From: Prorocentrum cordatum
Lineage: Eukaryota
Assembly: GCA_963575745.1 (NCBI GenBank)
Contig: CAUYUJ010000236.1
Coordinates: 62,001-116,489 of the forward strand
Reading direction: 5' to 3'
DNA length: 54,489 nucleotides
The notes below the pieces were generated by a model, which was given only the letters and a program-made list of their open reading frames with translations, made no database searches and was not told the DNA's origin. The position numbers and the translations under genes were made by a program. Of the stretch, positions 3,600-38,755 are shown one piece after another (position 1 is the first letter of the stretch; each line of letters starts with the position of its first letter).

Positions 3600-5930
<2,331 letters not shown>

Positions 5931-11370: not shown

Positions 11371-11485
11371 GGAGAGGAGACGAGAGGAGAGGAGAGGAGA
11401 GGAGAGGAGAGGAGAGGAGACGAGAGAGGGCGGCGCTCCTGTTGGAGGAGGGAGGAGGAGGGGGAGGAGGAGAGGAGAGGAGGAG
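11371..11485. repeat. (GGAGA)n/(GGA)n purine tract
   Basis: Directly visible. Confidence 0.9.
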
Positions 11486-12140: not shown

Positions 12141-14139
12141 ATCTGGGGAAATATCGTGGCCCACGCCATGATATCCCCCCTCCCTAGTCATCAACCCCCT
12201 GTCTGCCGCCCCCGAGGAAGGCCGAGCCCGAGGGCATGCCGGGCACAAACTCGCGCGCGCCCTTGTCCGCCCACAGGCTGTGGAGGTCCGAGGCGCTCTG
12301 CCCCGCGCCCGCGGCTGCGGCTCCGGCGCCAGCGTCCCACTGCCCGGCCGGCGGTGCGGAGCCGCCGGACCACATTGCTCCCCGGGTCGCACAGCCACGC
12401 GCGGTCCTGCCCGCCGCCAGCCTGGTGGCGTGGAGAACCGCGTGTGGCTTGGTGGAGCCCCCCTCCCTGGTCCAGGAGGGGGCCCCACCAGACCTGGAGC
12501 CAGGACGGATACGGAGGGAGCACGGGGAAGAGGACCCAGAGCAGGCCAGGAATGCACACGCGTTGCGGCAAAGCACCCTCGTTCCTATTTTCCTCCTTCC
12601 CTCCTTCCCTCCTCCCCCCTACTCGTCCATTCTCGCTCCTCCCTGCTCCTCCACACTGTGGGATTCCACACTGCTCTTCATACTGCTGCCCTGGCGGTGC
12701 TCGCCCTCACACACGCTCCCTTTGCGCACCATACCTCGCAGGAACCTGACTCCAGGGGCTCAGAATGTGCAGAAACCTGGCGTTCCTGTGTACGGGTCCA
12801 TGCTCACCAGAGACGCGAGGGAGGCATGGGGAAAGCGCATACGAAAGGAGGATGAGCACGAGAAGAAAGATGAGGATCCCAGAGATGACAACAGCGCCAA
12901 TCTGCAAGCGTCCTGCCAGCTCGAAGTAAAGGCATCCGAGCGGGGACGAGGGGCAGCCTCACCCTCGCAAGGGAGCATGCGGCGGCAAGCCCTTTTACGA
13001 CCTCCCACACAGAACCGTCGACAAGTCATGCAACGGTAGGAAGTCCAGCCTCGCAGCAAGCTACCATGTCTTGCACGGGCTGGATTGCGGCGGGGGCCCT
13101 GAGCAGGGTCGGGCATCCAAGAACCGACCAGCAATAAACCAACGATTGAAAACCAATGTATCTCCCGTTGGGCCCATCCTAGCTTTCGCCCCCCGTGACG
13201 ATCGTGTTCGCCTCATCCTCCTTGTCCTCTTCCCCACCCCGCCACAACAACGATACAGAACATGTTCGCCCCTCTCTGCGTACTGTTTTACACAATGGAT
13301 TTTAGAAAATGGTGTCTCGTATGGTTTTTACTACCGCTTGCTTCTGGTGTTTCACAATGGTTGTCCCTCTGCAGCGTACTCAGGCCATTGATCAGGATCG
13401 GCACTTTGTTCCCGTCGTTCAAGAATGGCGTTCTCGCCAAAGCGCGGGCCACTTTTCTGGACCCGAACCATTTTCATCGTTGTCGGAAACCCTCATGCTC
13501 CCTATTCTGCCTTCCCCTGGTCCTCCTGCTCCTCACGTTTCTGTCCACTGCAACTCCTGCTGGTGATGTTGGTCCTCGTCCGCGTCCTTCCTCATCCTTC
13601 TGACAAGCTGACAAGCTGATGCTCTGAATATCCCACAGACGTGACCATCTGACCATCCCCCCTAGTCCGGTCGGATCAAGGGGGGGGCAGAACAGAAGGA
13701 CAAGCAAAAGATCATCCTCCTCCCAACTGCAAAACAGTCCTCAAGTAGAAAAAGGAACTGGCCCCGCCCCCTGGGCGCCGTCTGCGATCGACAAGCGAGG
13801 CCGGGCCATAGGCTTAATCCGCACCAAGGGGAGGTGCCCTCATCTTCGAATCCTCGTCCATCCTCCACAGATGTAACCCTCCAATGCTATGAGACCCCCT
13901 CCATCCCTGGCCAAGCGTAGTTGTCAAACGAATGGACTGTGCTGTCTAGTGTGAGGCAAGCCGTATTCGTCCTCAATTAGTCCTGGAGTTTGGTCGCTCC
14001 AGCTGGCCGCGCAGTAGGGGGAGGGGCGGATGAACGAATGGTGGATGGAGAAGGGAAGGAAGTCGACGTGGGGAACGTTCCCAAGCCCTGCGAACATGAA
14101 CCGGGCGCGGCACCAATAAGGGGAACGCTTCCTAAGCAG

Positions 14140-15260: not shown

Positions 15261-15671
15261 GCTGGGGAACAACACCAAGAACCAGGGCGGGGAACCCGAG
15301 GAACCTCCGAGGAACGGGCAACGTAAGAATACGAGGCGCTGGGGGCGGGTAACCCGATGAACCCGGGGAATCCGAGGAACTTCCGGGCAACGGGCAAAGT
15401 AACAATAGGAGACACCAACCCGTAGCCTTTTCTAAGTATCCAATAGGCAAACCGAACTGGGGATCAAGTGACTGCAGGGAGGAGTGGGCAGTGGGGCGAG
15501 GGGGGGAAGACCAAGCTAGGCGCGCTGGCGTCATATCTGCTGTCCTATCCCTCACTCCCATAACTTACCATGGCGTAGATCTCCTCTCTATTCGCACAAT
15601 CGGATGTCGCAGCATGGCATAGCATTACATGGCATAGCATGGGGTCGAGTACCAACGCATGACATAGCATA

Positions 15672-19912: not shown

Positions 19913-19960
19913 ACTGGAACTGGAACTGGACAGACGCGAAGCGTCACAACAAGGGCCACA

Positions 19961-22900
19961 TTACTCCTTGGGCTTTAAGCCCCTGGAGAGACGATCTAAT
20001 ATCTCCCGCCTCTTGGGCGTCAAATTGGCTGTAGAGCATTCCTTACCTAGGTCCCGAATCTGATCGGTACCGTGTCGAGGGCAGACTCTGCAGAACCAAT
20101 AGCCACTGGCGGAATGGAAATACATACGGTGCGAATGATGCGCAAAGGACCCCCCGATGCGCACAGCCCCTGACCCTGGGGCCGCCTTGAAAAGCCCCCC
20201 GCCCACGGCCTGAGGCGGACAGCACGGCGTTCTGAGCCATGCCGTCCGTGTCCCTCGGCTCGCCGCCGAGAAGCAGTTGGTACACCTCCTGCCCTCGGGA
20301 TCGACACGATGAGACGACCCGAAGAGGGCGACGGCGGCGGGCGACGGCGGCGGCAAAAGGCGAGGGGGAGGGGGAGGAGGAGGGGAGGAAGAGGCAGCAG
20401 CATCAGCATTGGATGGAGGCGGTCTCTCGGGCTTTCTGTTCGTCACTGCCATAACGTCCAGGGTTGCCCTCATTAGCCGCTTCCGTGCAAGACTGGCTGT
20501 ACTCTCTACCTCCAAAATCCTCGCACGAACACTCTCTGAAAGGCGGGCCTCCAAAGCGCTCGCACCCGCGAGCTCGTCCACTACAGTATCCCCGATCAAG
20601 AAGTGCTGGGGAATGCCTCTTCTTTTGGCTTCGGCAAGGTCCAAATGCGACGGCATCCACAGAACAACAATTTCATGATGAGGACGCTTCTGCTCAGCTA
20701 ATAAGGCCCCGATGGATCTCCAAGTGGATGCCATCTCACCCGAGGGATTCTTGAACTTCCGAGCCCACCACCCGTTCACCACCTCCTCATTGTCAGCCAC
20801 GTAGACAACAGGCCCACAGGTGTATCTGATGGTAAGTTCTAGAGCGGCCAGTTCACCCCGAGGAACAGTTTGACGAGGGCCCACCAAAGGCCCTGAAATA
20901 GCTGAACCAATAACAGGCGGTGAAAAACTCGACATTGTTGCCACAGCTAAACCAACACGTCTAAACAAGGGATTCTTGGTATCTGGGCCCCCCGACGCAT
21001 CCCCGAAGACAAGAACAGGGTCATCGTCCTGCCCGACACCAAGACACCCTGGATTCAAGGTGGAATCGTTGATACCATAAGCCTTCCATTTCACTTCATC
21101 GGGAGGTGGGTCAACCTGCAGCCAGCTTGCAGGAATCACCCCCCTCAGCCAAAAACAGGCGAACATTTCGCTCTGAGCAACTGCCTGAGCGCATAACTTA
21201 TCCGAGGCTTCGTAAATACTATGCCCCGTGTTGCACTCACAAAGCCACGCACGATGCAGGGGGTCCTCCCGAACCATCTTACACCTCGGGCATAAATCAT
21301 CGGTAATCAAACCCTCATCCTTACGCCGAGATTGCGGCCATGAACCCCCTACAGCGATATTGACCAAAACTTCAGACAGTTGGCGCCCTCTGCGCACCTG
21401 TTGCAACTCGTGCACGAGCCTACGCAGAGAAACGTTGTTGGCTCCACCTTCAAGGCCTGCGCCGCAAAAGTGAGATGCTGCCTGGCGCCATAGGTGGGCA
21501 GACTGATCACGCTCAAACTCGGCAAGCAAATCAACAGCCTGATCCATCCCAACCAACTTATCCTCACTGAACTGCCATTCCCGCACCGTACCATCCCCCG
21601 TACTAGGAACCTCCCAGACGTCAGGCGCGCGGGGGACCCACCCTACCTGCAGCAAATGAGCAATGGTGGCAGAGAGGGGTCCACGTATATGCCTAGCATA
21701 TTCAGTGGGACCGAGGTTCTGAAACTTGGACAAAACTTGCGGCCAGGCACGACGAATGCCAGCTCGTACTTGCGGCTCCGCTATCCAAATGCGAAGCCAT
21801 TCACGAATGCAAGAGACTGGGAGACGAATCCCTGGGTCAAAGCCAGGGGTCCTCATGTCCAACAAGGTGGTTAAGCAACGCCCCTTTTTGGCCGCCCCCG
21901 AGACCGCTCCTAGACGCCTCCGAAGTCCCAAGAGCTGAGTCCCGAAAACGCCGTAGATCTGCATCCCGTAAGTAGAGGCCGCCTGCGGCCCTCCCAACTC
22001 CACCTTCTTGGTCACCTGGTACCGCTTCGAAGCCCAAGCAAACCTCCTGAGTTTGGCGTTCTGAGCGTTCCCTTTGATAACACGCTGCCTCCGAGTAGCC
22101 CGTGCTGGACGCTTCCCAACTCCTTGGTCGACCCCCAGATAAGCAGCCTGAAGCACCGGTTTAATCGGGATGTCCATCTTTTTCAAACGAGCAGAAACCT
22201 GGCGAGCAACGCGGTGACTGGAGCACAGAACCACACTCTTGTCTGCCAGCGTGAGCTGCTCTGCCCGAAAGAAGTCGTGAGCATCTCGAACGCACGCTTG
22301 AAGTTCCGAACTTACTGCCCTCTCTGAACCTACGACCGAACCGTCGAGGTCATCGATCCAAAGACGCTGGCTCATACCCACATGTGCTATACTCATCTTG
22401 CGCATGACGAAAAAGGTGACACACCGAGCGAACCTGGTTCCGTTCCTGAGCCCCTGCACCACGCTCCGAGTGGGCTGAAAGGCCCTCGAGTGCGCTCCAA
22501 GCTGCGAGACCAACCTAGGCGCCAAGCAAGTCTGCAACTCCAGACATAACAGCACAGGCGGATACCCTAATCGCAAAGCTGCCGAGATGAGACGCGGCCA
22601 CTGGATATGATCATAGAAACTCTTGATGTCAAGGATGGTCTGCCCCACCGTGGCCCCCAACTGCACTGCCACCTCGGAATTCAACACCCTGAGGTAAGCC
22701 TCCCTGAAAGCGCTATTCCCCACAATGGCAGCATCCCAGGACGACACCAGCGACTCAGACCATTCACGAGCACACGGCTCTCTAGCAAGGCTCCAGATAC
22801 GGCAAAACATCGCGATGAGCCCTATCACCCTGTCCCCTCCAGACTTCTTCGCCAACAACCTCCCCACCACTAGCATAGTCTGCCATGGCCATGTCTTGCG

Positions 22901-25358
22901 CTCTTCTATGGCGGCGCACAACGAACACAGCTCTGCAATCGCAACATCAGGCAACCTCTCGAAGTCGAGTGGAGAGAGACGATCGATACCCATCCCCGCC
23001 TTACCCTTCATCTTCCTGAGGGCCCCCCTGACGTCGTCGACAGTGAGAGGAGGAAGTGGGTCATAGTCTGCAGCAGCCTTGATGGTGCCAAAAAGATTCT
23101 CCAAATCGTTCACATCTAGAGTATCAGCGGACCACAACTGCTGCCAATGCTCTACCTTCGAATCGATGATGTCCTTTGGATTAAAGACCCTCTCCCCCTT
23201 GATAACAAATTCCTCGGCAGCGTGTGGGGCCTTGCGCAGGGACTTAAATACTGCACCTAGGGAGCTTTCCTCGACGATCCACTCCTGAAATCTTTTCGGA
23301 GACGCGTGCACCGCACGCCCACGGGCCCTCTTTGAGGCCTTCTTCGAAAGAACCTTCAAGGCTTCCAAGGTCCCAAGGTCCAAAAAGTCCAGGTCCCCTA
23401 AAAAAACGACCCACTGGTCCCAACTGAAAGCTCCCTTACCAGTCGGAAGAACCACGTGAACGCCTTCAGGGAGATCCTCCAGCAGAACTTTCCCCACTGC
23501 ACAAAGCTGAGCAACCTGCTGACTACCGTTATCACGTACCCTATGCCGATGGAGCCGAAGCAGCACCACATGGGCCCGTGCCCACCAGCTAGCCAAAGAA
23601 TCAGCGAGAGGTTGCGACCTAACATGTTCTGGCCTCTGAACTGCCTCGACAACTAACACTGGCCCCTGAGCTCGTGACCGACCGACCTGCTTTTTGCCGT
23701 GCTGAGATAGGATGGCATTCTCCGCTGCTTGCACCCATGCCCCGAACATGTTGCTAACAGGGATGACGTCGTCCCCTCCCATACGGTAGGCTAAAGACGA
23801 TGCAATAGCAGGCCAAACGTCTTCATGAGACTGCTCCAGAGATCCCACTTGTGCCCGATGCTGCCCCCACACTTCTGCTGGTATGGCATAGGGGCAGAGG
23901 GAGGGGGAAGACTGCTTAAAGTCATCGGCGACCCCGGGGGTTTCAGAGCTGACACATGGCACATCGGGATCCTTTTCCGCAGAGACACTCACATGACTGG
24001 CCCTAGGGACAAAACTTGATTCGTCGGCCCATGGATCCTCCTCTTCTGGGAAATCTTCGGGCTCTCCGAAAGCAAAGGGATCCTCGGGCTCTGTGAGAGG
24101 CTCCTGAGTAGATTCACCGTCACTACCTACATTAGACTCAACATTCTGCTTGGCCTGGTGCCCTACCACGTCCCCAAAGAAATCCTCACACGCAGCCTGA
24201 AACTTAGACGAGAAGGCCTCGCGCGCTTCACGCCGTTCGAGCTTCGCCCGCTGCGACTTGCTGTTAGGTTTAGGCTGCGCGGAGGGCCTAGGGACCTGAG
24301 GCAACACGGAGGCTACCTTAAGGGCTCTGGTTATAAGCTGCTGTCCTTCATTGCGAATTGTGATGCTGATGCCGATATGCGTGCCCCACGGCACATCGAG
24401 CACCCCAGAAACCTGACCTAGGTACGGACACGCTGCCCTACTAGCAATGACATAGTCTATATGAGACTGCCCCGTTCCTGTGACACAGGTGTGCTGCACA
24501 TCTGCTTGCCAGAGGAAACCCTGCACACGATCGTGGTGGCAGATTGAAATCGCCGACTATAACCCATGGGAGTTGCAGGAGAGAGACGTACGTGCCCAGC
24601 CTAACCAAACGTTGCGCGCTATCTCCTGCAAAACCTTCTTTGCCCAGTCCGTAGAAAACTATCAGTACCATCGAGTACCCCCGAAAATGGAGAGTGACAG
24701 GCAAAAACCCGTCGAAGGCATCCCCTGACGCAGCAGCCAGAGCTGGGAAATCACTAGGATCACTCGTGCGATGCGCCTGCAAATGACCTTCGGCGAGAAT
24801 CATTTCTCCCCCTTCATTGGAACGAGCACTCAAAGTCTCCGCTCTTGGCCGAGCGGGGTTAAAGAAAGGACGCAAGTGTGCACGCTTAGCTGCTCCAGTC
24901 CAATGATCCTGCCTAGACGCTGGCTCATGACACTCAGCAAGCGCAAAAAAGTTGCATCTCCTTCTGACCTGGGGACTGGTGATATGGCTCCAAGCCTGAG
25001 GACCTAAACAAGTGATGTTTCCGAACAGCAAACTAGAGAAATCTGCGGCAACTCGACTCCCTTCCCCAAGAGAGTCCCCTGCGACAAGACTGCTGGCCTC
25101 ACCGCTGCCACCTACTACTGGCGGAAGAAGTTGATGCGCTGGGGCTGCCTTCGCCACGCCGCCCTCCTGCTGTACAGGGGGTCCCCGACTGCTCGAGGCC
25201 CCTGAATCGCAGAGAGGGGCGTCGGCTCCCAAAGGCGCCCCAGCCGTAAGCGGCAGCCCGACCTGGCCGAAGTCCCCGACGACGTCGCCAGCCCCGGGCT
25301 GCACCTGGCGATCGGCGGTCTCGCGCAGCCCGCCAGGCGCGAGCTGCGCCGCCGACCC
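19961..25358 (-). CDS. LINE ORF2: AP endonuclease, reverse transcriptase, RNase H, Cys/His C-terminus; one frameshift near 24530
   Basis: APE: LLFGNIT, FFALAECH, SNEGGEMI, VIVGDFN, then in the shifted frame TC..SHIDYVI and WGTHIG. RT: KAGMGIDRL, KKSGGDRVIGL, LDIKSFYD, VVQG, WIDD, YLGV. CPRC..H..W.C knuckle. RNase H: FGDASGG, QTVPRGELAA, VADNEEV, WMPSH, GDTVVDELA. Confidence 0.93.
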
Positions 25359-26483
25359 TCAGGCCACCGCGCCAGTGGCGGCAGCGCAGGCCTCCTCGGA
25401 CGCCGCTGCCGCCGTCTTCGCCGCGAACTTGCTCGCGGAGATCCTCGCCGCGTGCGCCTCGACCTCGGCGGGCGTGGGGCCCTCGGGCGACGCCGTCGGC
25501 TGGGGCGTTGGGCCTCCCGTGGAGCCCGAAGCTGCTGCTGCACCCGCAGGAGCGCCTCCGCCGTCCCCTGCCGCCGCAGCCCCTGCATCACCAGGAGTAG
25601 CTTGACCTGCGTCCCCCTTCCTCTTCTTGGCCAGCCTCGACGCGACCTCCTTCTGCATCTGCTGGGCCCTCTGCTTCCACTCCTCGACCTGTGTACCCTT
25701 GCTCGTGAGAGTCTCACGTGCTGCTTTCAGATCCCCTTCGAGTTTGAGCAACTCTTCCCTTTCGTGCGGCTCGCACTCGTAGTCGCCTATGTGCTTGAAG
25801 AACTCCTCGTCCCACTGCAACTGCCATGACGCACTCTTGTCGTCACTGGGCTGGCCGCCGATCGGGTTCGACGAGGGGTCCGTGCCCATGCCCGCTTCAC
25901 GCGCGAGCGCCTTCACTGCCAGCTTCTTGCTGATCTCTGCCGCGGCCACCTCCTTGGCCATGAGCGCCTCCTTGTCCTCGGCTCTCTTGAGAGCCTCTCG
26001 ACATTTCAGCACCTGGGCTATAGCTTGATCATGCCGCATGTTGGCGTTCTTCCAAGCCCCGTCCGCGCGCCTCAACGCCTCCTCAGGCGTGAGGCTGGGC
26101 GCGGGTGGGCTGCCAGGCTTGTTCACGGCCTCGAGCTGCGCCAGCAACTGACTCTTGAACGTCATGTCCTGAGTGCTGCTGATGAGGCGCATGAGCCTGG
26201 CCTTCACGTCAGCGGCCGCCTCGGCTGGGGCGGTCACGCCCTTGCCGCCGCCGACTCCCTTGCCTGCACCCTTGCTGTCCTGACTCAGCGAGAGCGTCTG
26301 GTCGTCGGACAGATCGGTGCCTGCCGTGCCCTTGCGGGTCTTGGGCTTGTAGAGCTTGACTGGTCTGTTACATCGTGCACATCTGCATGCCCGTGAGAGC
26401 AAGACGTCGTTCCACTCGTAGGCCGAACATCCCGCGCACTGACTCCACGGACGGTGTGCCTCTTGTGCTGCCTTGCCTGCCAT
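25359..26483 (-). CDS. LINE ORF1 (374 aa), N-terminal C4 zinc finger and coiled-coil
   Basis: The first ATG downstream of the SL-like 5' end is at 26483. W.QCAGC..W......CRCARC motif, helical EEALRRADGAWKNA..KEVAAAEISKK region, Ala/Gly-rich tail. The frame is open and uninterrupted. Confidence 0.85.
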   Translation of the reverse strand: MAGKAAQEAHRPWSQCAGCSAYEWNDVLLSRACRCARCNRPVKLYKPKTRKGTAGTDLSDDQTLSLSQDSKGAGKGVGGGKGVTAPAEAAADVKARLMRLISSTQDMTFKSQLLAQLEAVNKPGSPPAPSLTPEEALRRADGAWKNANMRHDQAIAQVLKCREALKRAEDKEALMAKEVAAAEISKKLAVKALAREAGMGTDPSSNPIGGQPSDDKSASWQLQWDEEFFKHIGDYECEPHEREELLKLEGDLKAARETLTSKGTQVEEWKQRAQQMQKEVASRLAKKRKGDAGQATPGDAGAAAAGDGGGAPAGAAAASGSTGGPTPQPTASPEGPTPAEVEAHAARISASKFAAKTAAAASEEACAAATGAVA

Positions 26484-26618
26484 CGCGCTGCTACAACCTC
26501 GATTCGCCACGTCGAACGCACTCCAACTGTCAGACAGGGCCCAACGCGTGGAGAGAGTCGGCGTGCCCCTCAAGCCCCCTCGTGGCGGGTCGAGGTAGCT
26601 CAGGTGATGCAAAATGCG

Positions 26619-26640
26619 CCTGAGCCTGAATGGCTTGAGT
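26619..26640 (-). other. Spliced-leader remnant plus relic SL at the LINE 5' terminus
   Basis: Minus strand ACTCAAG+CCATTCAGGCTCAGG versus expected GCTCAAG+CCATTTTGGCTCAAG (6/7 and 12/15), abutting the TSD. Confidence 0.75.
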
Positions 26641-26657
26641 CAATATGACGAGTAGGA
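26641..26657 (+). repeat. Right target-site duplication of the LINE
   Basis: CAATATGACGAGTAGGA, identical to 19896-19912. Confidence 0.95.
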
Positions 26658-26794
26658 GGAGAATGAGCAGGAGGAGGAGAAGGACGCAGAGGGCGGAAGG
26701 AAGGTCTCCGAGAGTCGAAAAAGAAAAGGGCGAGAGACAAGCTAAAATTATTATCCTGTGGGGTCCTACCGTCGGGATAATAGTAATAACCCAA

Positions 26795-27515
26795 CTTTGA
26801 CGTACTTAGGAGGGCCTCCTAGGGAATCATAGAAATCCCCAAGGGTCCTACCAATCGCCAGATTCCTGAGAGGGCCGCTTACCGAAATCCGTGCGGCGGG
26901 CGGGGTGGTGCCGGGCTGTATGGTGCACCTTATAATGGCTTATGTAACGCTACCTTTGACGTACCTGGAGGGGCCTCGTAGGGAATCATCGAAATCCCTA
27001 GGGTTCCTACCAATCGCCAGATTCCTGAGAGGGCCGCTTGCCGAAACCCGTGCGGCACGCGCGGTGGTGCCGTGCTGCATGGTGCACCTTATGATGTTTC
27101 ATATCGCGCTACCTTTGACGTACCTGGGGGGGGGCTCCTAAGGAATCATAGGATTCCCACCGGGATCCGACTGATCGCCAGATTCCTTACAGGGCTTCCT
27201 AGGAAATCCCAAGAATCCCTAGGGACCCTACCAATTACCATATTCCTGGGAGGGCCGCCTAGTGAATCCTAAGAATTCCTCGGGATCCGACCACTTGCCA
27301 GACTCCTGAGAGGACCTCGTAAGGAATCCTGGGAACTCCTCGGGACCCCACCAATTCCCAGATTCCTAAGAGGGCCTCCTGGGGAACCCGAGAAATTCCT
27401 CGGGATCCTAAGAATTGCCAGATTCCTGAGAGGGCCTCGAAGGGAATCATACGAAATACCAAGGACCCCACCACTTCCCAAATTCCTGGGAGGGCTTCAT
27501 AAGGAATCCTAGGAA
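26795..27515. repeat. Composite satellite: ~160-bp duplication followed by 60-bp tandem units
   Basis: CTTTGACGTAC anchor occurs three times ~160 bp apart. CCAGATTCCT-like anchor recurs every 60 bp (27181, 27241, 27301, 27361, 27421, 27481). Confidence 0.85.
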
Positions 27516-28815
27516 TGCGTGGTCGCAGAAGTCGGCGGCCTGGTCGTCCGTCTGGCTGTCCGCGAGGGAAACGCTATCCGCGTTGCCGAAGTAATCCCAG
27601 AAGGGAGTTGAGCGCGGCGTCGGGTAAGGAATGGGGCGGGGCGTCTGTATGGGCGTCGGGGTAAGCGTCGATGAGAGTTTCGGGAGGGCGTCGGTTTGGC
27701 CGTCGGTCGGTCTGTCCTCGCGCCCGTGCTGGCGATCGCTGGGGTTGGCATCGCCAGGAAGGGGGGTTCCGTCACGGTCGCAATCGCCGTCGTGGCGGGC
27801 GTAATCTTCGTCGCCACGTCGGCGGGGGCGTTGTGAATCGCCGTCGGGGGGGGGCAGCTGCGGGGGACCAACGTTGGGGCCGTCGCGGGGGCCGTCGTGG
27901 AAACCGTCGTGGGGGCCGCGTCGGGGGGCAGTCGTGTGGGCCGCCGCGTGACCGTCGTGGGGGGCCGTCGGGGCGGTGGCTCGTGGGGACGTTTGAGTTC
28001 GTCGGGGGGTCGTGGGGCCCGGCGGGGGGTCGGGCGGGGGGCCCCATGGGATGGCTCCAGCGGTCCCTATGGCCGGTGTCTTCCTCTCAGCGCATGCGGT
28101 CACTCGGATGTCGAGCCCGCCGCGGGGCAGGCAGCGCCAGCTTTGGCCTGGACAGCCGCCCCTACGGCCGATTCACAGGGCGGTTCCCCGCGGGCTCCCT
28201 CCCAGGGCACGCGGCCACGCTGGGCGCGGCCGTCGCGGTGGCCGTCGAGCGGGGGAGCGCGGGGGCCGTTGCGGGGGTCGCCTTGGGAGCCGTCGCGGGG
28301 TTCGTCGTGGGGGCCGCCGCGAGGCCGTCGTGGAGGGATGTGTTGGTGGTGGGTCGTGGGGGCCTTCGCGTTGGGCGGAAATTGGTGGGACAGTCGGGGG
28401 GGGGGCGGGGGGGGCTCCAGGTGGTGGCTCCGGCGGTCCCTATGGGCGCTTCCTCGGGTATGCCCCCCGAGGTCTCCCTCTTAGGGCATGCGTCCACTCG
28501 GGGTGTGGCTGGGGGCATGGAATCCGACGTGGGGGCCGTAGTGGCACGCTGGCCCAAAGGGCGGCAGGCGGGGAGCCCCATCATCTCGGCAACGAACGGT
28601 GGCGTCCGTGGCCCAGTACCCGGGTGGCACGGCCAGGACGAAAATGGCCGTCTCCTTCCTCATGATGGAGGTCGGCCTGTCCGCTGGGGCGACCACTGCA
28701 CGGTTATGGTACCACAGGTGCCTGAGCGCCGCCTCCACGGCGAGCTGGCGCCTTCGGCGCGCTCCTCGTCGGGTAGCTGTGGGAGCCAACATGGCGATTT
28801 CCTGGGATCGGATGA

Positions 28816-30650
28816 CGAGAGAGCGTGATCCACCGCCGTTCTACTGTGGAAAATTCCCTCCCTCTTCCTCCGGAACCCAGGGTTCCCCCCCCCCCCCGTT
28901 CCGAAAATCTCCCCCCCCCCCCTGCTGGAACCCCCCCTCTCCCCCCTCCCGTACCCCCCCCGCCCCTCTCCGGAAAACCGAGGGGAAGTCACTACCGGTT
29001 CGAATGCCCCCCCCCCCCTCCGGAAATCCGAACGGGGTCACTACTGGTTCGAACCCCTCCCCCCCCTTCAGAAAACCGGAGAAGGGTCACTACTGGTTCG
29101 AATCCCCCCCTCCAGAAAACCGGGGGGGGTCACTACCGGTTCGAACACCCCTCCCCTCCTCGAAAACCGAGTGGGGTCACTACCGGTTCGAACCCTTGCA
29201 AGGGGCCCCTCCAGAAAACCGTGGGTGTCACTACCAGTTCGACCCCCCCCCGAAAACCGAACCAGGGGGGCCACTACTGGTTCGAACCCCCTCCTCCCTC
29301 GAGAAAACCAGGGGGGGTCACTACCGGTTCGAACCCCCCCCCCTCCCCCCCTCGAAAACGGGGGGGGGGATCACTACCAGTTCGAGACCCCTCCCCCGCC
29401 CCACGCTCACCGCTAGCACACAACTCTGGGTCCCTACCACCGTCCACACACCATCCCCCACTGCTGTCCCCAGCACTACTCTCCTCACCACCAGTGTCCC
29501 CACTGTTCCCACCACCGTCACCACTGTCCTCACCAGTGTCCCCACCACTGTCGCACTGTCCCCACTGTCCCCACCACTGTCCCCACCACTGTTCCCACCA
29601 CGGCTCCACTCTCCCCACTTTCTCCACGGCCCCAGCCACTGTCCCACTGTCACCACTGTCCAATTGTCCCACTGTCCCCGCCGCTGTGTTCCCACCACTG
29701 TCCCCACCACTGCCCCTGCTGCACCTATGTCCCATTATCCCACCGCCCGCCGTCCTCGCCACCGCCCTCACCACTGTCGCCACCACCGCTGTCCTCATCA
29801 CTGTCCCACTGTTTCCACCACCTTCCCACTGTCCCCACACCACTGTCCCCACCACTGTCCCACTATCCCCACTGTTCCCACCATTGTCCCCGATGTCCCC
29901 ACCAGTGCCCCCCACCAGTGTCTCAATGTCTCCACTCCCCACACCATTGTCCCACCACGGTCCCACTCTTCCCACTTCCCCCACGGTCCCCACCACTGTC
30001 CCACTGTCCCCACTGTTCCCACCACTGTCCCACTGTCCCCGCCGCTGTCCCACTGTGCTGTCCCACCGTCCCCACTGTCCCCATCACTGTCCCACTGTTC
30101 TCACTGTCCCCAACACTCCCCCCACTGTACTATTGTCCCACCACTGTCCTCACCACCGCCTTCACCACTGTCCCCACCACTACCGTCCCCACTGTCCCGC
30201 TGTCCCCTCACCACTGTCCCCACCACCACCGTCCCCACCACTGTCCGCACCACTGTCCCACTGTCCCCGCACCACTGTCCCCACCACCACCGTTCCCACC
30301 ACTGTCCCAACATCCCCACCATTCTCCAACTGTCCCGAGCAGCGGGCATCGTTTCGTTTGCCGGCGGCGAGGGCGGGGGGGAGGGGGGTGGTTCGAACCG
30401 GTAGTGACCCCCCCCCGGTTTTCGAGGGGGGCGGGGGGTTTGAACCGGTAGTGATCCCCTCCGGTTTTCGAGAGGGGGGGGGTTCGAACCGGTAGTGACC
30501 CCCCCCCCTTTTCATGATGGACTGGAAGGGAGGGGGGGGGGGTTCGAACCGGTAGTGACCCCCCCCCGGTTTTCGAGGGGGGGGACGGGTTAGGAACCCC
30601 CAGTGACCCCACTGGGTTTTCCGCCAGCAGCGGTAGAACACGCTCTTTCG
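28816..30650. mobile_element. Foldback/MITE-like non-autonomous element with inverted subterminal arrays
   Basis: Terminal inverted match AGAGCGTGATCCACCGCCG (28820) versus revcomp AGAGCGTGTTCTACCGCTG (30646), 16/19. Nine copies of GAAAACC(G)nTCACTACCGGTTCGAAC(C)n on the left and four inverted copies on the right. Central (CCCCACCACTGT/CCCACTGT)n at 29430-30335. Confidence 0.8.
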
Positions 30651-32421
30651 ATGCTTGAGGGCCGCCACGCGTTCGGGCAGCCCCCAAGTGCCATGGATCT
30701 GGAGAGCCGGAGAGGGAATTGTAGAGGAGGTAGACGAAAAGGAGTTTGTAAAAGGCATCAAGATACACCAAATATGTAACAGGTCGCACTGTCACTTACG
30801 CACCTCAATACCTGAGCGGTGGGTGGCTCTCATCCTTCTCGTCCTCCTGCTCATCCGCCAGCTCCTACAGCTGTATTGCTTCCCGATTGCACATCAACGA
30901 TGGGATACTCTCCGGAACTCCAGGTACGCTATGACACGCATCGGCGGACATACATAAAAGACAGCGCAATGAGAAGGGATGGGTGGGAGGGGAAGGATGT
31001 CAGAGATGGCTCGAGCGCACCTGGCGTGCCCCTCGCTGCTATTTCCTCTCCCAGGCCCCACCCCGTGGCTCCTGCTGCACGAGCAGGCTGTGGAACTCGT
31101 CCAAAATCGCGTTGATTCTGCAGCTCTCTGGGCCTCGGACGGAAAGGGAGAGGGGGGGGGGGGCGCAGAGGGAGGGAGGTTCACAATGGACGAAATTGTA
31201 GGGCTTCGCGCTGCGCACAGACAGCCCCTTCAGGTAGTCCTGGCTGGCCTCAAAAGGCCCCCCCAGCAGTCCCAGCTGGTTTTCACAGGCCGCCCGAATA
31301 GTCCTGGGCGGTCCAAACATACCTGTCGCCGCCTCGGGCGGCACCCCTGGGGCGCTCCGAGCCCCAGGGTTGGGGCATTGTTGCGACCGCCCTCCCTGGA
31401 CTACTCGGGGGGCGTGTTGAGCCCAGCTGGGACTACTCGGGGGGCGAGTTGAGGCCAGCAGGGACTGACTGGGGGGGCTGTCTGCGCGCAACCCGAAGCA
31501 TTGCCAGGACGAGAGGGGAGTTGGCAAGGGGAATTGTAGATGACCAGCAGCATGCGGCTGGCTCTTCGGGATCCTCGGGGCGCCGGGAGCGACCGCACGC
31601 CGAGGAGAGTGCCTGCGGAAGTGCAAGTGGCTGTGTGCAAAAGTTTTCGCCCCCCTCCGTTGTCCCAAGATTTGGGCCTCGCATGAATGACCTTAGGCAC
31701 GAGGGGCCTCTGGTGTGCGGCTTCAGGGGGCAGCGGGGACGCCAAGTCCTTGGGCGAAAATCAACGAGGGGCGATACAGTCGGGGTGGATTGGGGAGGAC
31801 ACGCGAGAGGACACAAAACTCTTCCGATGGCCACATTGCCACTGGAACGCGGAAGGCATGGGTCGCGAAACACAGGACACAAGGGTACCCCTGTTTGGGC
31901 AGGGTCGACCTACTAATCAGACTTGACTGTAAGAGTGCGGGGGGAAGAAGGTGCCCTTTTCGGGTTTCCTTCCACCACCGCCACGATAAGTTGGATCGGG
32001 GAAGGAAGATGATGAGGAGGAGGACGAAGGGGAGGAGGAGGAGGAGGAGGAAGAGGAGGAGGCGGAGGAGGAGGAGGAGGAGGAGGAGGAGGAGGAGGAC
32101 CCCCCCCCCTCCAGCTCATGGTGTTGATGGAAAAGAAGCCCATCACAATTTCTGCAGCTCTCGCGGCCTCCCCCATAGCGTCGCCCCCCCCCCCATTGCA
32201 AATTGCACGTGGCCCCCCAACCCCCAGGCGTGCAGGCCAGCGCCGGGGGGGGGGGGGCTGCAGGCCCGCGCCCAAAGCCACTCCAGCGGGAAGCCCCCCC
32301 CCCCCCCCGCTATCCTCAGGTCTTTTCTTACAGGGGGATTTTGGGCGACAGCTCAGCCATATCCTAAAAGACAAAAACAATAAGCAAACTAGTCAAACAA
32401 CTAATCTCCTGACTATATTTT

Positions 32422-32423
32422 GA

Positions 32424-32480
<57 letters not shown>
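32422..32480. repeat. GA-T25-A30-TC homopolymer palindrome
   Basis: Directly visible. Confidence 0.85.
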
Positions 32481-32481
<1 letters not shown>

Positions 32482-32596
32482 TCCTGTAAGAGGGGCAGGC
32501 CCGACTTACTACTTTCCTTCCAGAACCTCCCTCGACCCACAAACAGGAGCGCGAGAGCTACCACCTCGGCTGTCGCGGGCGCCCCGCGGCTGGGCG

Positions 32597-32599
<3 letters not shown>

Positions 32600-32656
<57 letters not shown>

Positions 32657-32663
32657 CTCTCTC

Positions 32664-32705
<42 letters not shown>

Positions 32706-33283
32706 TCTCTCTCTCGTCTCGTCGGTCTCTCCCGCACCTCCTCTTCTTCACTCCGCCTCCTCCTGGTCCTCCTCCTCCTCCTCGTTCTCGTTTTCCTGCC
32801 CGCCTCCTCCTCTCCTCCTCCTCCTGTTCTCCTGCTCCTCCTGCTCCTCCTGCTCCTCCTGCTCCTCCTCCTCATCTTCCTCCTCCTCCTCCTCCTCCTC
32901 CTCCTCCTCCTCCTCCTCCTCCCCCTCCTCCTCCCTCCTCCTCCTCCTCCCCCCTCCCCTCTTTCTCACTCCTCCTCCTTCGTTATCACTCTCCTCCTGC
33001 TCCAGCTGCTCCCCCTCATCCTCCTCCTTCTCCTCCTCTCCTCCTCCTCCCCCTCCTCCCCCCCCCTCTTTTCCTCCTCCTGCCCCCCCTCCTCCTCCTC
33101 CTCCCCCCCCTTCCCCCCCCCCCCCCCCCCTCTTTCTCCCTCTGTCTCACTCCTCCTGCTCCCCCCCTCCTCCTCCTCCCCCCTCCCCCTTCCCCCTTCC
33201 TCCTCCTCCTCCTCCTCCTCCTCCTCCTCCTCCTCCTCCTCCTCCTCCTACCCCTCCTCCTCCTCCTCCTCCTCCTCCTCCTC
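32600..33283. repeat. (CT)n and (CCT)n tracts
   Basis: Directly visible. Confidence 0.92.
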
Positions 33284-33399
33284 GGGCGTAGCCAAGAAGG
33301 CGCCTGGTCTCGAGGTTCAGCCGCAGTCGCCGCCGCACGTTGGCCGCGCGACATGGAATCGGACGGCCCTGACCACACCTGCACTTTGGCTGTGTGAAA

Positions 33400-36300
33400 T
33401 GATGAGACTGGCTCGGGAAGCTAAAAGGGCGCAGAGCAGTGAAGATATAATAGGCAGAGACAGGGATGGCAACAGACGCGGACGAGGGGACAATAATACC
33501 GAAACGGGCGAGAGGGCAAAGGTCGAGCGGGTGCCTGACCACACGAGTGAGAAGACGGAGAAATCTGGGGCACTTCCAGTAGTGCCAGGAACGATCTGAA
33601 CATTCATGACAACCTAACATGCACGGAGAGTCCTTCTGAAATCTAGTGTCAGAAACCCACGCAGCGGCGAGCGTCTCGATGGCGGCAGCGCGCCAGGAGG
33701 GAGGAAGGGAGAGAAGAACAAAACGACACGAAGCCCAGTCAATGTTCTCAATCCCCGCAATACTCCCAGGACAACCCGACCGAAGTCGCGCGACGAACGC
33801 GGCCACAAGGGTGTCGGGGAAGAGGGGGGACATGAGGCTGGAGCACAAGAGACGTTGAGGGTGAAGAGCTTTGCAAGGGAGGAGAGGGTTCGCAGCGACG
33901 TGAGCACGAAGGGCACGGGTGGCGCTCCTCCCAGGGATCCCCAAGGCCGGGGAATCTGGAAATCCTGAGGCGGCTTGCTGAAGGTTCTGAGCGCTGTCAC
34001 GCGAAAACCAAAACTTGGGGCACCAGCGGTGCCCGCCCTCTCCATCAGGGTAACCCGCGACGATGGATGAGATCGAGAGCTCCTCCCAGGCAGCTTCTTC
34101 CAACACCTCCCTACATCCACGCCAGTTCGGGGGGGTATAAGAGCTGGCACGGATCAGAGTCGCGAGACTCAGAGCGTGGAGAGAGCGTGGAGGGACGCGG
34201 TTTTAGGACCTCCCCAGTCCTTGAGGCGGTGCCAGTCCACATTCTTCCAGCAGCGGAACGGCGTCTTCAAAAGGCGAGCTAGCTGCTGATGCTCTGTCGT
34301 CTGAAATTGCTTCGGGACCGGGAGCAATTGAGCGACATGCCCGAGGACGGTGACAGCACGACGACGATAGAGCAAGGCCGTGATCTCCGAGGCAGAGCCA
34401 CCAGCAGCTATCTGGGCGCAGCGGGATAGGTACTTACTGAACGGCTCCTGCCACGAGTCCCACCCCACATCAGGGCCCAAGAACATGCCAATATATTTGA
34501 GCTTACCCGAGATGCCCATGGAGTCCCACGATCGGAGGTTCCTGGAAAGCCCATCCCGATAGCTTTGAACAGTCTGGGGGGGATACGATTGCCAATGAGC
34601 GGGACAACGTGGCACTTGGGAATATTGAGGCTCAGGTGCGCATGCTCCTTCGCCTTGCAAAAAACAGCGGCGACCTCGCTCAACACCGAGATGCACTTCA
34701 AAACCATGCCGATGTCATCGGCGCGTGCGCGCGCATGTCCACGGCCCGCGCTGCCCACGACCCGTCGGAATTCTTGGAGGAAAGGATCGAGAGCAATGCT
34801 GAGTCACATGCCCGAGGCTGGGCAGCCCTGGATCATGCCCGCGGTGACCACATACATGAAATGAGCGATGCCCCCGAGGTTGCCCCAACAGACGACGTTC
34901 TCATAGATGGCCGACAAGAACCAACGAAGAGGAAGCGGGAGGCCAAGCACGTCGAGCACCAGCATCCGCCAGCGCTGGCACAGGCTCGGAAAGGCCTGTC
35001 CGAAATCAAAGCCTATCAGCAAAGGAAGCGCGGCCATTGACCCCATGGAGAATACGCGGGAGTGCGTATCTAAGTCCACGATATTAGAACAGAAATTTCG
35101 ACCAGAGACGAAACCCCGCTGATTCGAGTCGAGTCAAGCAGGCAGGCGGCGAGAGAGTTCCCAGCAACAGACTCCCCTGAGGACCTTGCAGTCCGTGTTC
35201 TTGAGGCCGAGGGGCCTCGTGTCCCCGACGCCCCGAAACACCCCTTCGTTGTCGCCTGCTTCCGTGCCTTTCGGGATGAAAACCCCGAGGAGCTTGTTAA
35301 AGTTGAAGCTGAGCGAGGGCCCGCTCAAGATCCACTGGAGGCTGTCAAACAATACGGTGGATCCTAGCGGAGCGTGCTGCCATGCAGCGTACCTGAGACG
35401 GTCGGGCCCTGGTCCAGAATCCGTTTGGCGCCTGAGGTAGCTTTCCAAGAGACTAAGGGTTGGGGGGGGAAGATCCTGGCACGGAATCCTAGGGGCGAGC
35501 TCCTGGTGATAAGACCTGGCCGCATCTTCGCCCGGGGGTTTGGCCGGAAAGACGGGGGCCAGTGGGTAGTCAGAGCTTTGAGGACTTGGGCGGGTCCCAG
35601 AATTTTTTGGCCCCGGGCCCGCGCGCCAGCAAGAGAGACGTGTTTGCCAAACGGAGACCACAGTTGCGCAGCTCGTTTTATTTTCGCCACCCGTCCTCGA
35701 AGCCGATTTTGACGCTGCTCACTCCCAGCGGCAGCAAGACTATCTTGAACGAGCCGCCGACGACGCTGTGAAACTTCAGCGTGCAGCGAGTCGGAGAGCG
35801 CAGCAAAGACCTGCGGCGAGATCAGGCCCACTGTGCCAGCATCTGGGGCGACCACGAGGCGCTCACGGGCCAGAGGGTGAGACATGCATATCCGCTCAGC
35901 AAGTCGCACATCTTGCCGGAAAGCCGCTCGAACACGCGTCCGAGCAGCGATGAATTTCGCATCGAGTGTCTGCGGCTTACGTAGTAGTAGAGTGTTGCGC
36001 GCATATCGCGCAGATTTAACCATGAGCGTCTTGTAGTACGCGTGCTTTAGAGGGATACAACGATGATCATACTCAGCAGCCGCAAGCGCTCGGTGCATGT
36101 ACCAGAAAAACTCCTGCGAGCGGAAGATCTCACGCGGGATAGGCATAGCATCTTCTGGCGTCCGTCGGCGGGTGACGAGGGTAGCACATGCTGCTGCGTG
36201 ATCAGATATTTGTTTGGCGCGAAGTTGCTCGGGAAGCCCAACCACCTCTCCCCCTGCGATCGTCTGAGACAAAAACAACCCTGGAGCAGAGCAGAAGAGA

Positions 36301-37018
36301 CGATCAATACATGAGAGATGACGAACCCCAGCATGATAATGAGTAGGCGCCTCCAGGGTGAACTCAACGAGCTTCCGCATAAGTTCTCGCCACTCAGGAG
36401 CACCAGGCACTAGAGGAGGGAGTGGAGCCGCAATGTGCTCTCCAGACGGGTTGAGCGGCAGAGGTTGCTGCAACCCGAAGTTGAAATCCCCGGCGACGAT
36501 GACGAACTTGGACTGGGGGCCCCCGCTCGCGCCGAGAAGATCTGCGGTGATGAGCTGGCAGACGTGGGAACGCTGCTGATGTATAAGGCCAGGGTTGTGT
36601 GTGTTGTAATGCGATATCCAAGCCGCGTTGTTCTGGGCTTTGATGCGGGCGTTGAGTACTCGACCAGGGGCGATGCAAGAGGAGGAGATGAGGGGGGGCC
36701 GAGCTGTCGAATCTACGCTCTCGCTCGCTGGCGGGGACAAACTTCGGGGATAACGTGACTACGCCACCCTTAGCCTGGGGCCTCGTGGCATCATCAGCAT
36801 TGCACGCGGCTGGGGGGGAAGGAGTGGGAAAAAGAGAACGGGGGATTATTCTGGCGCAGGAAGTCCTGCACTTCTGCAATCGATCCGTGAACTTCTTGCG
36901 CGGCCACGATTGCCCCAGGTTGGGGCAGGAGTCGGAGGTATTTGAATTTAGCCGGGCGCACGATAGTCTGATGGTGCAGCAACGCGCAAGAGTTCCAAGA
37001 CGCCACTCCCATCGGCAT
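33400..37018 (-). pseudogene. LINE ORF2 (APE endonuclease, RT, CCHC), multiply frameshifted
   Basis: APE: VASWN, AAQEVH, KGGVVTL, YNTHN, IVAGDFN, TH..SCIDRLF, ISDH. RT: SGPGPD, FIPKG..DTRPLGLKNTDCK, QRGFVSGR...NIVDLD, FDFGQAFPSL, GMIQGCPASG, RADDIG, LNIPKC, KYIG. C-terminal CMLGC..DRSWHYWKC. The 3' end is approximate. Confidence 0.9.
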
Positions 37019-37058
37019 CTCGGCGGCGGCAGCACCGCCCCATTGAGCGAAGCAGGTG

Positions 37059-38174
37059 CTAAAGATACCACTGCGTCGCATTGCCCCCCTGGATGGCGGC
37101 GGCCAGGGGGCCCTCGAGCTCCGCTCGAGACATGCCCTCAGCAGCAAGGTTCGACTCTGCCCAGCGAACCTGCGGCGCATCTCGGTCAGCGAGCGGAGTG
37201 ATCTCCACGTGCTGGCGCCAATTGACTGAAATAGTGCCGCGCAGCTTGTCGACAAAGAAACGCTTGCCCTGGGAACGGCTCTCAAAGAACCTCTTGGCCG
37301 CCTTGAGGGCAACCTCGCGACGGATTTGGCGCGGGTTTTGTCGGTCCCGACAAAAATCTCCGAACGGGCGCCAGAAACTGCAGAGCCGAAAAATCGCACC
37401 CATTCCTCGCCAGGGCGCCGCGGGCACAGCAGGCTGAGCGCCTGCTGTACACGGCGGGCAGCAAACTGCGAGCTGCCCTTGAACTTGATCGTGAAACGCT
37501 TGTCGACGGGGTTGTCGCTCTGCAAGGCCCACTCGTTGTCGTCGGTGTTGGGGCGGTTGAGCCACGGCAAGAGGGCGTTCTGCACCTGCAGCTTTGCCAC
37601 CTGCTCCTTGCAGCGGACCGCGGCGATGGCGACGTCGATGGCGCGGTTGAACGAGGAGTCCAACGACAGCTTCGGGAAGACTGTGGGCGGCTCGGACGGG
37701 GTCTCCTTGACCATGTTGAGCTCCTGCTTGATATTCTTGACTTCTTCAGATAAGACTGCCAACTGGCGACTATGCATTCTGGACCTGCTCGACGTTGTTG
37801 ATGCGCTGCTCGACTTGCTTAGCCATGTTCCCACGTGGTGTCTGCACTCTGGCCCCAAGCCCCAGCAAGCTCTCGTTGAGCGTCTTGGTGGTGCTGTCGG
37901 CGCGGCTGAGCAGCTCAGCGCGCAAATCTTCGATGGAGTCCTGCAGGCTGGCCTGGGCGACCTCAAACTCGGACGAGGTATCGCCAGGAGATCGCTGCCC
38001 CGCAGCTCGCTCGTTGGAACGATCGTCACCTCTCGGGGAACCAGGCGCCTCGATGTCATTGCCGCCAGCGACAGCAGCGCCGCGAAGAGGGGTGGCCACC
38101 TGCGGCGTCGGGAATGCGGGGGCGGCGCCCAGCTCCTCGAGCATGCGCTGCTGCGTAGGAGCCCCATGAGACAT
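37059..38174 (-). pseudogene. LINE ORF1 (coiled-coil plus putative RRM-like region), two frameshifts
   Basis: First ATG after the SL at 38174 (MSHGAPTQ..). Heptad-rich LQDSIEDLRAELL and LSEEVKNIKQELN. Frame switches at ~37775 and ~37345, and the ORF ends ..ATQWYL* just upstream of ORF2. Confidence 0.75.
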
Positions 38175-38320
38175 CGCACGCAGGGGCTCCAGTGCTCGAA
38201 ACTGGGGGCGAACAGCGAGGACCGTGGGCGAGCGCCCCAAGCCGTCTGATCCAGACAGGCCACGGAAGGGTCCAAAGCTAATCGCAACACCTCGGGTAAC
38301 CTACCCAGTTTACGTTTAGC

Positions 38321-38342
38321 CTTGGGCCCAAATGGCTACGGG
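38321..38342 (-). other. Near-complete dinoflagellate spliced leader (DinoSL) copy
   Basis: Minus strand CCCGTAGCCATTTGGGCCCAAG versus DCCGTAGCCATTTTGGCTCAAG: 19 of positions 2-22 match. It lies exactly at the boundary between the element and the microsatellite. Confidence 0.88.
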
Positions 38343-38755
38343 CCCCCCCCTCCTTCCCCCCCCCCTCCCCCCTCCCCTTCCTCCTCTTCATGCTCCGCCT
38401 TCTCCTTCTCCAGCTCCTCCACCCCCTGCGCCCCCTGGGCCTCCTGCACCTCCCCCACCCCCTCCTCATCCTCCTCCTCATCTTCATCCTCATCCCCACC
38501 CTCATCCTCATCCTCAGATGCATCCTCATCCTCGCCCCCATCATCATCATCAGCATGAGCACCATCATCGCCATCATCAGCATCATCATCATCGCCATCA
38601 TCATCTGAACCACCATCATCATCACCATCACCATCACCATCCTCGCCATAAGCCTCACCATAATCATCATCAACAACAGCATATCAGCATCACGATCATC
38701 ATCCTCATCATCGTCACCATCATCATCAGCATCACCACAGGCAGCATCATCATGT
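38343..38755. repeat. (CCT)n then (CAT/CAC)n microsatellite
   Basis: Directly visible. Confidence 0.9.

Follow-up and report, generated by a model that had tools for sequence, protein, structure and literature searches.

Two LINEs with leader-derived 5' termini

The window analysed here is a stretch of 54,489 nucleotides from Prorocentrum cordatum (contig CAUYUJ010000236.1, positions 62,001 to 116,489) that contains two long interspersed nuclear elements (LINEs), named E1 and E2, each beginning with sequence derived from the dinoflagellate spliced leader (SL), DinoSL. E1 spans 26640-19913 (6,728 bp) and E2 extends from 38342 to about 33284, where the 3' boundary is approximate. Both are on the minus strand, a co-orientation that carries no statistical weight, and the remainder of the window is composed of satellites and microsatellites. 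A preliminary description of this DNA had placed DinoSL-derived sequence at the 5' terminus of both elements, and this assignment stands. It is quite probable that both LINEs multiplied by way of DinoSL-capped RNA, with the SL relic serving as a portable trans-splice acceptor.

The 5' terminus of E1 is proven by a 17-mer, TCCTACTCGTCATATTG, of which the window contains exactly two copies, both directly adjoining the element. The two copies (26657-26641 on the 5' side and 19912-19896 on the 3' side, minus strand) form a perfect 17-bp target-site duplication (TSD). The SL-derived stretch shares its first base (26640) with E1, abuts the TSD and is in the sense orientation. From 26640 to 26619 the minus strand reads ACTCAAGCCATTCAGGCTCAGG, which may be divided into ACTCAAG (26640-26634), the tail of the newest SL, and a 15-nt relic, CCATTCAGGCTCAGG (26633-26619). 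Compared to the pattern of an SL tail followed by a relic, GCTCAAG|CCATTTTGGCTCAAG, the composite ACTCAAG|CCATTCAGGCTCAGG matches at 18 of 22 positions. No other site in the window scores 17/22 or more, and a score of 18 was reached by none of 40 block shuffles. The E1 relic alone matches at 12 of 15 positions. The relic part of the pattern, CCATTTTGGCTCAAG, has six matches in the window at three or fewer mismatches, against 1.59 expected, and the E1 and E2 sites account for three of them. In the portions of the literature that were accessible, recycled dinoflagellate transcripts are marked by CTCAAG|CCATTTTGGCTCAAG (PMC12014239; PMC7245778), and PMC12014239 reports the SL tail plus relic, GCTCAAG|CCATTTTGGCTCAAG, as dominant among them.

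One base downstream of the first complete relic is a further relic-like sequence, GCATTTTGCATCACC (26617-26603, minus strand), with 10 of 15 matches. Of 108,978 positions across the window, 87 match the relic at 10/15 or better, a background rate of about 8e-4, and the probability of one at this fixed place, allowing ±1 nt, is about 0.002. Judged by sequence, it is probably an older, third relic. A degenerate relic further 3' fits the reports from expressed sequence tag studies, as far as these are summarised in PMC6050394. On the other side of the terminus, the TSD ends in 8 nt, TCATATTG, that resemble SL sequence (CCATTTTG), and microhomology at the 5' joining step may account for the newest E1 leader being cut to ACTCAAG. 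A reading of 26648-26634 as a second complete relic was rejected since the TSD accounts for its first 8 nt, which are thus target DNA.

For E2, comparisons were made with the DinoSL sequence DCCGTAGCCATTTTGGCTCAAG and its 21-nt core, CCGTAGCCATTTTGGCTCAAG. The core has a single match in the window at three or fewer mismatches, at 38341-38321 on the minus strand (two mismatches, 19/21), and had no match in 100 dinucleotide shuffles. The minus strand from 38342 to 38321 reads CCCGTAGCCATTTGGGCCCAAG, a full-length relic of the form C|CCGTAGCCATTTGGGCCCAAG, and it is located where a G/A-rich flank meets unique sequence.

Both leaders are followed by a short 5' untranslated region (UTR) without an upstream ATG, 135 nt long in E1 (26618-26484, ATG at 26483) and 146 nt long in E2 (38320-38175, ATG at 38174). 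The first ATG thus falls within the interval of roughly 135 to 150 nt given in the preliminary description.

Structure and coding content of E1

The 3' end of E1 is a simple-repeat tail, CCAGTTCCAGTTCCAGT (19929-19913), of the (CCAGTT)n type and without poly-A. A self-BLAST of the window identified no long direct repeats (long terminal repeats, LTRs) flanking the element. Reconstruction of the empty site from the TSD gives a CT-rich sequence that is not SL. Upstream of the first base, pyrimidines make up 83% of the 60 nt at 26641-26700 (minus strand), after which comes the CAAG of the leader. From its sequence, this arrangement is a plausible acceptor context for E1, and trans-splicing at the CAAG would reproduce the present 5' structure exactly. 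One DNA contig of the X1 set (26339-26880) spans the 5' junction with four differences, and no other 5' junction stood among the rows displayed from four DNA contig runs; X1 may be the sample from which the window itself was assembled, so this contig is not independent.

Open reading frame (ORF) 1 of E1 (26483-25359, 374 aa) begins with the ATG at 26483 and ends with a TGA at 25361-25359. It contains an N-terminal Cys-rich motif (26438-26370) and a central coiled-coil-like region. The protein has no Pfam match, and its residues 13-43 match the ORF1 of a metagenome relative, L001, weakly (E 3e-4). ORF2 follows in two pieces. The N-terminal part (25358-24441), with the N-terminal half of the apurinic/apyrimidinic endonuclease (APE), continues in the frame of ORF1 behind the single TGA until a frame break near 24525. 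The main part (24556-19961, stop codon TAA) encodes the C-terminal half of the APE, a reverse transcriptase (RT; about 22855-22343), a CCHC-like knuckle (21292-21239), an RNase H domain (21010-20555) and a C-terminal Cys-rich region (20284-20069).

The only Pfam match on E1 itself is RVT_1 over the RT region, which is below threshold (E 1.2e-4; 22.3 bits against a cut-off of 29.6). The remaining assignments come from comparison with relatives. Over nearly its full length, ORF2 aligns to the proteins P0001 and P0002 (29-31% identity) and P0003 (23%). P0001 carries an RNase_H match of 38.3 bits (cut-off 25.8) and P0003 an Exo_endo_phos match of 31.7 bits (cut-off 24.5), both proteins aligning to the E1 APE at 24716-24236, which is N-terminal to the RT. 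A further homologue, P0004, carries a precomputed PF00078 assignment. The D/E/D/H/D columns of the RNase H are invariant in a multiple alignment (A1), and the APE region is homologous to 10 metagenome loci. In an atlas comparison, which serves as a lead only, the neighbours of E1 are RVT_1/RNase_H clusters (score 0.97). With an RT, an APE before the RT, a TSD, a simple-repeat tail and no LTRs, E1 fits the features of an APE-type LINE.

The present copy of E1 is defective. Residues 81-147 and 153-252 of P0001 align to E1 in two frames with an overlap of 11 nt, from which it follows that 26 nt are missing from the APE at about 24525. Over 24048-24770, an X1 contig is longer than E1 by 26 letters. 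The X1 contigs internal to E1 differ from it by roughly 1-4% and show that other recent E1 copies exist in the same organism.

In E1 and three of its metagenome relatives, ORF1 and ORF2 are in frame with a single intervening stop codon: TGA in E1 (25361-25359, minus strand), TAG in L001 (1235-1237), TGA in L002 (1370-1372) and TAG in L009 (7122-7124). The context TGA-GGG is common to E1 and L002. The sequences suggest that ORF2 of these four elements may be translated by stop-codon read-through. In L003, L005 and L012, the two ORFs are in different frames.

Structure and coding remnants of E2

The ORF1-like region of E2 (38174-37116) consists of a coiled coil and a C-terminal domain and is frameshifted, being collinear with residues 74-285 of the protein P0005 in frames -3 and -2, with the ATG in frame -2. 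The ORF2 remnants (36695-33438) are collinear with P0005 in frames -2, -1, -3 and -2. They include a putative APE (36695-35766), an RT (35322-34504) with an ADD motif at 34725-34708, and a CCHC motif in the C-terminal region (33623-33570). P0005, a Prorocentrum cordatum protein with 32% identity over the APE piece, is the sole relative of E2 that was found. It has an RVT_1 match above the cut-off (50.7 bits), and its Exo_endo_phos match of 19.6 bits, like that of 19.3 bits on the E2 APE piece, is below the cut-off of 24.5. The atlas neighbours of E2, again a lead only, include zf-RVT (score 0.84-0.85). Taken from ORF1 through the CCHC, the collinearity with P0005 runs through frames -3, -2, -2, -1, -3 and -2, which amounts to at least four frame changes, or five if the ATG frame is counted. 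By this comparison, the E2 copy is defective. Thus, the term "full-length" used for both elements in the preliminary description is appropriate to their structure; it does not extend to their coding capacity, given the APE deletion of E1 and the frame changes of E2.

A (GGA)n-rich tract (33283-32737) adjoins the 3' end of E2 and may be considered either its tail or a target microsatellite. Read on the sense strands, E1 lies in TCC-rich and E2 in GGA-rich DNA, which is the same kind of microsatellite in opposite relative orientation.

Relationship between E1 and E2

Within the window, the E1 proteins match only themselves. The E2 pieces produced no cross matches with P0001-P0004, and the best BLASTP E-value between P0005 and P0001 was 3.1. 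As far as can be judged from these comparisons, E1 and E2 are deeply different LINE lineages, in agreement with the earlier view of two unrelated families. The order of domains in E1 is ORF1, APE, RT, CCHC-like knuckle, RNase H and C-terminal Cys-rich region; in E2, it is coiled-coil ORF1, putative APE, RT and CCHC. The earlier contrast between an APE-RT-RNase H and an APE-RT-CCHC architecture is retained in that an RNase H is seen in E1. With this domain C-terminal to the RT, E1 is a candidate for the RNase H-bearing LINE clades (I, Tad and others), and E2, labelled L1/Tx1-like in the preliminary description, is a candidate for that clade. The CCHC does not separate the two because E1 also has a CCHC-like motif. 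Searches of the PDB by sequence with E1 ORF2 and two E2 pieces identified no matches, and scans of viral contigs with P0005 and the A1 alignment found nothing.

Metagenome relatives of E1

A metagenome scan with the A1 alignment identified 20 loci, of which 10 include an ORF1 start. The 6.6-kb contig L003, which is about the length of an element, starts with TTGGCCAAAG-C-TCCGTAGCC-GTTGGCTCAG, an SL tail before a nearly full relic. This relic is four edits from the SL core, and matches at four or fewer edits total four in the 196,322 nt of the loci, both strands included. In L012, the sequence GAGGAGGCATTTCGGCTCCAG (15/21) is directly 5' of the 5' UTR, and the related contig L005 begins inside the same relic. 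For comparison, among 3000 random 300-nt windows, 15/21 or better was reached in one and 14/21 or better in 53. These sequences point to two independent lineages, one represented by L003 and the other by L005 and L012, with leader-like sequence at the 5' boundary.

Some contigs that bear SL-like sequence have retro-units arranged head to tail and co-oriented. At 300-400 of L012, a relic separates the 3' end of one LINE copy from the next copy of the same element. At 7380-7517 of L005, a LINE 3' end precedes the SL-like CAATTTTGGCTACG, and L009 (1391-12357) has two co-oriented E1-like copies and then an SL-like sequence at 12337-12357.

The 3' ends of the group offer a separate observation. The L003 contig ends in CCAGTAGTA-type repeats and that of L008 in (AGT)n, 1.1 kb past its ORF2. 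The window itself contains a 1.4-kb (AGT)n microsatellite at 4394-5834, and the E1 tail (19913-19929) is, as noted above, (CCAGTT)n. A link between the tails of the E1 group and AGT-type repeats is possible.

Mechanism and alternatives

LINEs must rebuild their 5' end in each generation, and the known ways of doing so are internal promoters and, in the case of R2, co-transcription followed by ribozyme cleavage. The 5' termini of E1 and E2 are consistent with a different cycle. In this proposal, the RNA templates of both elements would have borne a trans-spliced DinoSL as their 5' end, and target-primed reverse transcription (TPRT) would have copied each RNA up to or into the leader such that the new DNA copy starts with SL sequence. 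The TSD and the simple-repeat tail of E1 mark TPRT as the mode of insertion.

The stacked terminus of E1 provides the most detail. Its leader tail is fused to the relic exactly where trans-splicing at the relic-internal AG would fuse them. From the register ...CAAG|CCATT..., it follows that an SL-headed ancestor of E1 gave a transcript which was trans-spliced at the ancestor's relic and then inserted anew. Stepwise, an ancestor with an SL relic would have been transcribed from the upstream flanking DNA, a fresh SL would have been joined at the AG inside the ancestor's own relic (CCGTAG|CCATT), and reinsertion would have left the stack CTCAAG|CCATT...|(C)GCATTTTG.... The E1 lineage would thereby have passed through at least two, and probably three, consecutive rounds of leader acquisition and reinsertion. 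Since the acceptor falls in the ancestor's first 7 nt, flanking DNA must, by the established requirements of the spliceosome, have supplied the branch point and the outron. Further, such a splice can occur only in RNA that extends upstream of the first base of the element, which supports the view that E1 transcription starts outside the element. For the promoter-less idea of the preliminary description, this is the best support available. An integrated SL would then allow any copy in transcribed DNA to make a capped, translatable, full-length RNA without an internal promoter. Promoter independence, read-through from host genes and the participation of E2 in the same cycle are putative extensions of this scheme.

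The suggestion in the preliminary description that the acceptor AG is supplied by the element's own integrated SL is thus upheld by the stacking register of E1; E2, which has no stacking, does not share in this support. That such a cycle regenerates the 5' end each time is not exactly the case. With the internal AG as acceptor, each cycle lengthens the terminus by about 15 nt, and the new leader can be cut short at integration, as happened in E1. Splicing at the terminal CAAG would instead give an exact copy of the end.

Several observations weigh against a shared SL-dependent cycle. The direct evidence at 5' junctions comes from one genomic copy per family, and both copies are damaged, E1 by the 26-nt deletion in its endonuclease and E2 by at least four frameshifts. 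The E2 relic is full-length, single and unstacked, and the 60 nt upstream of it (38343-38402, minus strand) are purine-rich with 5% pyrimidine. A search for an E2 TSD found only 12-nt low-complexity matches between GGA-rich flanks and no clean duplication. E2 could be a dead-end copy. A Pfam search with 63 ORFs outside E1 and E2 returned no matches, leaving no host gene recognisable in the window. Among the metagenome relatives, six of the 10 loci with an ORF1 start (L002, L008, L009, L011, L016 and L017) were without convincing SL-like sequence, L011 having only 44 nt of sequence on the upstream side, and the match in L001 is weak (14/21, reached in 1.8% of the random windows). The SL-negative loci may not be dinoflagellate, and the atlas neighbours of E1 include diatom-labelled clusters.

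The two copies might instead be dead-end processed copies. Under this explanation, master copies with an upstream promoter and an outron give rise to SL-headed offspring that, like processed pseudogenes, do not propagate, the promoter region being lost from the RNA through SL trans-splicing. The single, heavily degraded relic of E2, the APE deletion of E1 and the reliance on one 5' junction per family would all agree with it. However, the SL tail of E1 sits on one or two older relics, which means that an SL-headed copy was transcribed, trans-spliced and reinserted, and L003 also has an SL tail before a full relic. This explanation is considered unlikely.

Slightly less probable still is that the relic acts as a promoter, with the TTT(T/G) inside an integrated SL serving as a core promoter that needs no outside transcription. 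Such a role was proposed for dinoflagellate retrogenes by Song et al. 2017, according to the accessible text of PMC5585692 and PMC6050394. TTTG is kept in the E2 relic and TTTTG in the third relic of E1; however, the motif is lost in the first complete relic of E1 (CCATTCAGG). Moreover, the AG that was used (CCGTAG|CC) precedes the TTTT motif. An RNA begun at or after the motif would exclude the acceptor, and the stacking register thus requires initiation further upstream.

LINE enzymes are known to switch templates at 5' ends, as in U6-L1 chimeras. On this basis, the LINE RT could have switched from a LINE RNA without an SL to the SL RNA or to another SL-capped mRNA, which would make each terminus a chimera formed at integration. 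The junctions are instead located exactly at the 3' end of the SL exon (...CAAG / ...CAGG), with no SL-intron sequence and in the canonical relic register, and the same feature is seen in both of the unrelated families as well as in metagenome relatives, making chimeric integration highly improbable. Finally, the idea that GC-rich, repeat-rich DNA resembles DinoSL here by chance is effectively refuted: while the 87 relic-like 15-mers show that such matches are not rare at 10/15, the observed ones were reached in 0 of 100 and 0 of 40 shuffles, and both are in the sense orientation at element 5' boundaries, one of them abutting a TSD.

Multiplication of both LINEs through SL-capped RNA thus remains the preferred explanation. 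A more general proposal can be advanced tentatively and has the lesser chance of being correct, namely that several deep dinoflagellate LINE lineages are obligately SL-dependent and promoter-less, that the SL is their heritable acceptor, and that their TPRT machinery stands behind the massive "mRNA recycling" of these organisms.

Comparison with known systems

R2-type LINEs are transcribed together with 28S rRNA, and a self-cleaving ribozyme at the 5' end releases them. E1 and E2 would resemble them as promoter-less LINEs that depend on host transcription and have a 5' end set by RNA processing. They differ from R2 in that SL trans-splicing by the spliceosome would carry out the processing and also provide a cap, that insertion is not site-specific for a host gene and that the endonuclease is of the APE type, putatively so in E2. 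By analogy, the proposed cycle may be viewed as mRNA recycling applied to the retrotransposon itself, joined to an R2-like dependence on host transcription.

The SLACS, CZAR and CRE elements of trypanosomatids are inserted site-specifically into SL RNA genes and are, like E1 and E2, LINEs physically tied to SL sequence. E1 does not fit a LINE family that targets SL genes since its empty site is CT-rich, non-SL DNA; the SL of E1 comes from RNA processing and not from the target.

A close parallel is found in the dinoflagellate retrogenes with DinoSL relics, which are explained by the mRNA-recycling model of Slamovits and Keeling (2008) as it is described in PMC6050394 and PMC5585692. The 5' SL relics, the stacked register CTCAAG|CCATTTTGGCTCAAG and the re-use of the relic AG as an acceptor are shared. 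In the retrogenes, the recycled unit is a host gene, whereas here it is the retrotransposon itself, with an APE, an RT, a 17-bp TSD and a simple-repeat tail. In the literature that could be accessed, SL relics are known on host retrogenes and on endogenous viral genes. The machinery behind the thousands of SL-tagged retrogenes is treated as open in the parts consulted, where PMC6050394 leans to LTR elements and PMC5585692 has LINEs as the presumed source. The latter (Song et al. 2017) reports, in its accessible text, an enrichment of the GO term "RNA-dependent DNA replication" in the set of SL-relic genes, which it takes as a hint of the machinery.

Two further systems are of interest. In Schistosoma mansoni, six genome-encoded copies of the SL exon are merged to transposable elements and were maybe trans-spliced and retro-transcribed (PMC5832876, from the text available). 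This is another SL system in another phylum; neither TSD-defined termini nor stacking is reported in that text, and its authors allow for assembly chimeras. The trypanosomatid L1Tc and ingi elements are LINEs in an organism with all mRNAs SL trans-spliced, and they represent the opposite solution: from the accessible portions of PMC1874656 and PMC8190864, the first 77 nt of the element form an internal promoter, Pr77, from which abundant unspliced transcripts are made.

In the accessible literature, with supplementary gene lists outside the search, no statement was found of dinoflagellate LINEs starting with DinoSL or cycling through it. As a TSD-delimited, tailed LINE copy of an SL-capped RNA, E1 provides direct sequence evidence for LINE TPRT on SL-capped RNA in this organism. 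If the proposed cycle is true, SL trans-splicing at an element's own relic would be a third solution for building a LINE 5' end and one that suits long unidirectional transcription units; obligate SL dependence, if true, would be a previously undescribed answer to the LINE 5'-end problem. Stacked relics could also act as a generation counter for element lineages.

Other SL-like sequences in the window

Degenerate SL-like sequences are also present away from the two LINEs. One is at 15420-15436 on the plus strand (CCGTAGCCTTTTCTAAG, with four deletions) and another at 12514-12494 on the minus strand (CCGTATCCGTCCTGGCTCCAG, 16/21), and no recognisable ORF family is located downstream of either. 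A 90-bp satellite of about 27 copies (8962-11372) has an SL-like core on its minus strand, CCGCACCCATTTTGGCACAC, that matches DinoSL at 15-16 of 21 positions. The satellite could have been born from relic-bearing sequence, or the resemblance could have arisen by chance.

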